Position numbers: made by a program
Source: a plasmid
DNA: 64,000 nt
NCBI RefSeq assembly: GCF_058153355.1
Contig: NZ_JBLWLY010000002.1
Reading direction: 5' to 3' (one strand)
In this document: piece after piece, positions 42,001 through 43,133 of the stretch
Numbering within the stretch: the first letter of the stretch is position 1
Layout: each line of letters starts with the position of its first letter

Positions 42001-43133
42001 AAGAACTCAGGTTAATCTGTTCTTGCCCCCTTAATATCCAGACAGGGATTGGATATTAAGTTAACGTTACTCGCTGATGTCGATATTCTCGCGGAGAGCG
42101 ATAACCCAACGCACTATGCGGATGGTTTTCATTGTAATCGGGCTCCATTGTCTTCTGAATAATGGCGATTTTTCCTGAGGCGTTTTACGGTATTTCAAGG
42201 GGCCTGCTCAGAACTCAAGTTAATCTTTTTTGTGAAATTATTTTCATAATTTAATAACTATATCAATTTTATTGAACAGCAATGAATTTTACTATAAAAA
42301 AACGATACTTTCTCTGATTCCTCTTATGGAGTGCTTCCAGTTAGCAGAATATGTATTCTGCGATGAAATCCTCGATGATTTTTTCATGAGGCTCAACTAA
42401 GTGTGAAAAACTGATGTTTTTTTAATAGAGGTCTGAGGTAGCCTGAGTTTAACGTGAGGTAGCCTGAGTTTAACGGACACTCCTTCCTGAAATAGAATGG
42501 CATCAGAAGGAGCCAATAATGAGCAGAAAAACCCAACGTTACTCTACGGAGTTTAAAGCCGAAGCCGTCAAAACGGTTCCTGAAAATCAGCTTTCGCTCA
42601 GTGAAGGCGCTTCCCGATTATCTGTTCCTGAAGGCACTTTAGGACAATGGGTTACCGCCGCAAGAAAAGGGCTCAATACACCTGGCTCCCGCACAGTGGC
42701 TGGAAGTTATGCAACTGCGTAAGGCTTTAAATGAAGCACGACTTGAGCGAGATATATTAAAAAAAGCAACAGCGTATTTTGCCCGGGAGTCGCTGAAAAA
42801 TACGCGTTAGTCGAACAATGGCGACAACAATTCCCTGTTGAAGCGATGTGTCGGGTACCTGGTGTATCCAGGAGCGGTTATTACGACTGGGTACAGCATG
42901 CCCCCTCAGACAGAAAACAAAGTGATGAGCGGCTAAAACTGGAGATTAAGGTGGCACATATCCGCACTCGCGAAACATATGGAACCCGGCGGCTCCAGAC
43001 GGAGCTGGCAGATAACGGAATTATCGTCGGTCGTGACAGACTGGCACGTCTTCGTAAGGAGCTGAGGCTGTGTCAACGCCACGATTTTTAACCGTTATTT
43101 GCCATTTTCATGCCCGCTAAGATACTTTCGTTA

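Follow-up and report, generated by a model that had tools for sequence, protein, structure and literature searches.

A doubled left tip on a truncated IS600-like copy upstream of ospC1, best read as an IS-into-IS rearrangement scar

Insertion sequences next to ospC1

The window, by which we mean the whole 64-kb stretch of DNA analysed here, is a region of a pINV-type virulence plasmid of the Shigella type. At the locus considered in this study ospD3 and ospC1 lie directly upstream, and are 98.3% identical to S. dysenteriae pSD1_197 and ~96.8% identical to S. sonnei/EIEC plasmids. The MxiE-box consensus (GTATCGTTTTTTTANAG) has three exact matches in the window where 0 are expected, at 42292-42308 (- strand), 45430-45446 (+ strand) and 63038-63054 (- strand). 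The first of these, which we take to be an MxiE box, is located ~125 bp from IS600-like copy 4, and two of the matches are found upstream of ospC1 and of ipaH at 45567, with IS elements just outside. The ospC1-upstream flank is followed by a short orphan tip, by copy 4 itself and by a complete IS21. These features, together with the other IS600-like copies detected when one copy was compared with the window by BLAST, are as follows.

42434..42454, + strand: orphan left tip, IS positions 1-21, an exact copy of the tip of the left inverted repeat (IRL), abutting the ospC1-upstream flank
42455..43070, + strand: IS600-like copy 4, IS positions 1-616, 616 nt at 100% identity to the full copies
42519-42722, + strand: orfA' of copy 4, truncated, 67 aa
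from 42846, + strand: orfB fragment of copy 4, first 75 codons
43071..45201, - strand: complete IS21, 2131 bp, recognised from its sequence, ORFs and Pfam domains
43131-43931, - strand: istB of IS21, 266 aa, IstB_IS21 domain
43928-45100, - strand: istA of IS21, 390 aa, rve domain
4187-5440, - strand: full IS600-like copy
24309-25561, + strand: full IS600-like copy
31442-31725, + strand: IS600-like copy 3, cut at 284 nt
52367-53619, - strand: full IS600-like copy
58345-59597, + strand: full IS600-like copy

The repeated element is 1253 bp long with ends TGAGGT...ACCTCA, and is represented by four full copies, by one copy cut at 284 nt (31442-31725) and by copy 4, which is cut at 616 nt. Within the length that each retains, five of the six show 100% identity; the remaining one, a full copy, has a single mismatch. 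The name IS600 given to the element in the preliminary description needs qualification. An E. coli element annotated as IS600 is only 92.3% identical to it, whereas identity reaches 98.3% with the isoform of 1264 bp in S. sonnei pSS_046; PGAP annotates this pINV isoform as 'IS3 family' or 'ISSfl11 family'. On the basis of these two values, we use 'IS600-like' as the safe name.

The full copies possess the TG...CA terminal inverted repeats of the IS3 family, with IRL and the right inverted repeat (IRR) agreeing at the tip and at CGGACAC, and Pfam identifies HTH_Tnp_1 in OrfA' and both HTH_21 and rve in the full orfB. Compared with the isoform of 1264 bp, all six copies lack 11 bp (AGCTGGAATCT) that lie between CTG microhomologies after IS position 248. 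With this deletion OrfA terminates at codon 67, before the A7G frameshift site is reached, and consequently no OrfAB transposase can be made from any copy in the window. The protein domains are thus retained while the -1 frameshift between orfA and orfB that is typical of the IS3 family is lost, and the element is a defective derivative of this family rather than a functional member. The 1253-bp variant with the 11-bp deletion was not seen in PLSDB or among complete E. coli genomes. Mobilisation in trans, gene conversion, segmental duplication and assembly consensus are all possible routes by which a transposase-null variant came to be present in six copies.

Matching 3-bp flanks are absent from the four full copies (gcg/gat, atc/gcc, gcg/acc and tta/ctg), and we attribute the missing target duplications to later recombination. 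The left flanks of copies 1 and 5 are identical for at least 30 nt, indicating extensive recombination between copies or segmental duplication. Copy 3 adjoins a 47-nt diverged remnant of an IS3-type terminal repeat (TGATCCTACCTACATAATATAGACAC..., 31395-31441); here too, the tip of one IS3-family element is joined to a terminus of the family in its subterminal region.

Copy 4 keeps only the left of the two IS3-family inverted repeats, and has neither a right end nor a DDE domain. HTH_Tnp_1 is found in its OrfA', and its orfB fragment yields HTH_21 only, with rve absent. Its truncation by IS21, as originally described, was borne out by our analysis: copy 4 breaks off at IS position 616 (43070), and the terminal repeat of a complete 2131-bp istA/istB element begins at 43071. 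This element has the length (~2.1 kb), the istA (DDE) and istB (AAA+ helper) genes and the TG...CA ends expected of IS21; its ORFs carry IstB_IS21, rve and Mu-transpos_C_2 domains, its termini read TGTCAACGCC... and TGTCAGCGCC... with TGTCA... ends, and it is 98.6% identical to the annotated IS21 istA/istB of S. sonnei pINV. No 4-bp target duplication surrounds it (flanks GCTG vs CAAT), and a BLAST comparison of the IS600-like element with the window revealed no remainder of copy 4 beyond it. The truncation is therefore associated with IS21 but is not a simple insertion.

The doubled tip and its ancestral state

At the left end of copy 4, the sequence TGAGGTAGCCTGAGTTTAACG occurs twice in exact tandem at 42434-42454 and 42455-42475, as had been reported, with 0 mismatches between the units (TRF: period 21, 2.0 copies, 100% matches, score 84). 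The 21-bp periodicity ends at both borders and extends not one base further (c/g before, g/t after), and the borders are without microhomology. The repeated 21-mer corresponds to nt 1-21 of the IS600-like element. It is present 7 times in the 64-kb window, compared with 0 expected from shuffled sequences, and the five occurrences outside the tandem are the starts of IS600-like copies (5440-, 24309+, 31442+, 53619- and 58345+). Comparison of copy 4 with these five left ends, which the preliminary description had proposed as a check, established that all five are single and that only copy 4 is doubled.

Both units are direct copies of IRL. Unit 1 agrees with IRL at 21/21 positions vs 13/21 for IRR; no IRR sequence is present at 42434-42475, and in the window the IRR 21-mer is confined to the four full right ends. 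The new joint places IS nucleotide 1 against the internal IRL position 21/22.

In 10 plasmids of S. dysenteriae, namely pSD1_197 and nine related ones, the same flank (...aatagaggtc) leads into an IS600 tip that is single, ends at 40 nt and is cut by a different sequence. In pSD1_197 the 40-nt tip occupies 6906-6945 (L001 numbering) and is followed by attactgatgcagtg.... In S. sonnei there is no IS at the junction, and the flank runs from the same point into unrelated DNA. Together, these two arrangements show that unit 1 is the tip of an IS600 insertion that is both old and shared, and thereby dispose of the concern that the duplicated 21-mer might belong to the flanking target rather than to the IS. 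In our interpretation, the orphan tip at 42434..42454 is the remnant of an IS600-like copy that was resident here ancestrally. The doubling sets the present plasmid lineage apart from the pINV plasmids of S. dysenteriae, with which it has the ancestral insertion in common.

Three differently framed queries found no 21-bp doubling among 72,556 plasmids (PLSDB) and 5,426 E. coli genomes. A search of genome and metagenome contig collections with the pattern tip-N{0,30}-tip likewise returned no doubling, the sole metagenome match being an unrelated 10-bp microsatellite. Exact-protein look-ups for independent assemblies, using OrfA' (67 aa), two junction-spanning ORFs and IpaH, gave no match. Draft contigs of close relatives, which were found via OspC1, share this flank but end after 17-19 nt of the first tip; since they break inside this tip, they say nothing for or against a doubling. 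No independent assembly confirms the 21-bp doubling, which is a singleton. Upstream BLAST extensions of 4-11 nt at other IS600 copies (the O157 traT locus and others) were considered and rejected as chance or partial matches picked by ranking; they represent neither further duplications nor a target consensus.

Analogous doublings and alternative origins

A comparable structure resides in the chromosome of E. coli 720632 (NZ_CP025842.1), where the left end of canonical IS600 is doubled over 26 bp (TGAGGTAGCCTGAGTTTAACGGACAC twice), beginning with nucleotide 1, at the 3' end of dtpC (2001-2052 in L004 numbering). The flanks of this IS600 do not match, and its right end (3290 in the same numbering) abuts a truncated lysU, which implies that an adjacent deletion accompanied the event. 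The 26-bp doubling is unique among the 5,426 E. coli genomes. It differs from the case described here in replicon, flank and IS600 subtype, and is an independent event.

The 64-kb window was also scanned for tandems of two copies with a period of 15-120 and an identity of at least 85%. Only two cases were recovered, the 21-bp IS600-like doubling and the following one.

34759..34848, + strand: doubling of an IS3 right terminus (TGATCC...), a 45-bp tip-anchored tandem with unit 1 of type A and unit 2 of type B, 86% identity

IS3 homology in other plasmids begins exactly at 34804, which is the start of unit 2. Unit 1 matches the isoform at the paralogous locus 10026 (10026-10070), which has the same flank without the extra 45 bp. 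The divergence of 14% and the assignment of the units to two IS3 isoforms indicate that two distinct IS copies contributed, and the retention of the whole doubling in 135 pINV-type plasmids establishes that the structure is real. Judged by their sequences, the diverged units exclude both slippage and assembly overlap for this 45-bp case. A further tandem, exact and of 22 bp (CATGGACGCAACTTCCCCTCTG twice), is present without a recognised IS tip in the EIEC pINV NZ_CP011417.1 (19379-19422 in L023 numbering); CATGGACGCAACTTCCCCTCTG is single copy in the window, at 18368-18389.

Replication slippage or illegitimate recombination could in principle have created a tandem duplication that was independent of transposition and happened to copy the first 21 nt. 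The identity of the two units would agree with such an origin, and the 22-bp exact tandem of the related EIEC plasmid, with its single counterpart in the window, indicates that short tandem duplications also arise by means other than IS ends. This origin is nevertheless unlikely, because there is no border microhomology, because the periodicity stops exactly at both ends, and because this doubling, that of E. coli 720632 and that of IS3 all have their register at IS nucleotide 1; in the IS3 doubling, moreover, the units are 14% diverged and match different isoforms, which slippage cannot produce. We judge it quite unlikely that the doubling is an assembly or polishing artefact, in which a flank contig reaching 21 nt into the repeat was joined untrimmed to an IS starting from nucleotide 1. 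Such an error would be in keeping with the absence of the doubling from every independent assembly, with the draft contigs of relatives, whose ends 17-19 nt into the first tip are of a kind prone to mis-joining, and with IS copies in the window that are identical or one base apart and share an 11-bp deletion seen nowhere else. It is opposed by the fact that only 1/10 of the IS600-like termini in the window is affected, by the copy that differs by a base, which argues that copies were not simply pasted, by the analogous IS3 structure in 135 independently sequenced plasmids, and by a separate genome with a 26-bp version.

In the junction of a transposon circle or tandem dimer, IRR and IRL face each other as inverted ends about 3 bp apart. 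The preliminary description had suggested that the duplication might be a footprint of abortive transposition or of such a head-to-tail junction, and IS3-family elements do make circles and tandem dimers (PMC1636345, PMC9333248). A remnant of this type has hardly any probability, as it is refuted by the sequence at 42434-42475: the inverted IRR that it needs is missing, and the first unit is a direct copy of IRL. The part of the suggestion that survives is the transposition-related origin, which is the best reading of the doubling. Also very improbable is targeting of the IS911/IS30 type, in which one strand is transferred beside a resident inverted repeat upon its synapsis with a circle junction. 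Self-repeat targeting by IS3-family elements and IS30 is documented (PMC9333248; PMC7986276, citing Loot 2002, 2004). For IS30, and by analogy for IS911, the outcome is a junction in which IRL and IRR abut beside the targeted repeat (PMC9333248; PMC7986276), with strict orientation (PMC9333248), whereas the joint described here lies inside the repeat, at position 21/22, and unites two IRL tips in direct orientation, so that the targeting model is contradicted by the geometry. Taken together, the known targeting and junction readings are improbable. A strand-switch origin (IEE-type abortive copy-out) was rejected; it requires microhomology and yields deletions (bioRxiv 10.1101/2023.06.07.543989).

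Proposed origin and relation to known systems

The doubling is probably the scar of an IS600 left tip that was joined into a resident left inverted repeat, one copy then being lost. An IS600-like element was already resident upstream of ospC1, as the junction common to the S. dysenteriae plasmids shows. According to this proposal, transposase would later have joined a left tip at position 21/22 of the resident IRL in the same orientation; assuming a staggered cut of the usual 3 bp, the target triplet would be ACG at positions 19-21. The donor tip may have been that of a transposon circle, whose insertion would be a nested tandem one, or may have belonged to a tandem dimer whose active IRR-IRL junction attacked the copy upstream, and the two routes would be indistinguishable. 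Homologous recombination between the direct repeats, two of 1.25 kb, could then have removed the redundant copy, which may alternatively have been lost as the deletion circle of an intramolecular event. The expected remainder is flank - IRL(1-21) - IS(1...), from which an IS21-associated rearrangement would afterwards have removed all beyond IS position 616 by some presumed route, leaving the junction that is observed.

Several observations favour an IS-into-IS scar. A joint of IS nucleotide 1 to an internal IRL position without microhomology is the signature expected of transposase strand transfer, and the ancestral single-tip state is preserved at the same site in the 10 S. dysenteriae plasmids. 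The 26-bp case of E. coli 720632, the 45-bp IS3 case and the recovery of only two tandems by the scan all support an origin linked to transposition. That no full copy has matching 3-bp flanks indicates that inter-copy recombination is rife on this plasmid. Against the proposed scar, both IS600 doublings (21 bp and 26 bp) are singletons. Also against it, the copies in the window cannot make transposase, so that the enzyme must have been supplied by another copy, unless the event predates the 11-bp deletion or its homogenisation.

The doubled tip is without evident function and the product is inert. No promoter was made by the doubling: the sole promoter-like site on the element strand, TTAACG-17-TAGAAT, is also present in an undoubled full copy. 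The orphan tip lacks the subterminal binding part of the repeat, and the copy it precedes is without a right end and a DDE domain. Alone, a doubling on a dead copy from which no promoter arose matters little, and its value is that of a marker. The most fitting interpretation is that of an ordinary scar left by an IS-into-IS rearrangement.

IS3-family elements may repeatedly leave a recognisable scar in the form of tip-anchored terminal doublings. Considered together, the 21-, 26- and 45-bp cases suggest that annotators of IS-rich Shigella genomes could rely on this type of scar to recognise past IS-into-IS events. A more far-reaching and doubtful proposition is that IS3-family elements recurrently integrate, in direct orientation, into the subterminal part of their cognate inverted repeat. 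If true, this would constitute a self-targeting mode distinct from the IRL-IRR targeting that has been described, and partial terminal duplications anchored at the tip, of 21 and 26 nt for IS600 and of 45 nt for IS3, would be its diagnostic scar. By a rough estimate, chance insertions into resident repeats could explain so few cases, and these therefore demonstrate no preference for the repeat.

The element itself resembles the IS600/ISSfl11-type elements of Shigella/EIEC pINV in its TGAGGT...ACCTCA ends, its orfA with HTH_Tnp_1, its orfB with HTH_21 and rve, and its A7G slippery site, but differs in the 11-bp deletion and the resulting 67-aa OrfA and, for copy 4, in the cut at 616 and the doubled 21-nt tip. 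The closest structural analogue, the 45-bp doubling at the IS3 right end, is likewise a tip-anchored direct duplication of an IS3-family terminus; it affects the other end of a different element, its units are 86% identical, and it is old and widespread. As in targeting by IS30 and IS911, an IS end is here joined at the cognate inverted repeat of a resident copy, although in those systems the joint lies beside the repeat with IRL and IRR inverted, whereas here it lies inside the repeat with the tips direct. Nested IS insertion followed by homologous recombination accounts for a solo terminal fragment ahead of a left end that is complete, and also for the missing target duplication; the present example departs from it in that the fragment is unusually short (21 nt) and comes from the same element.
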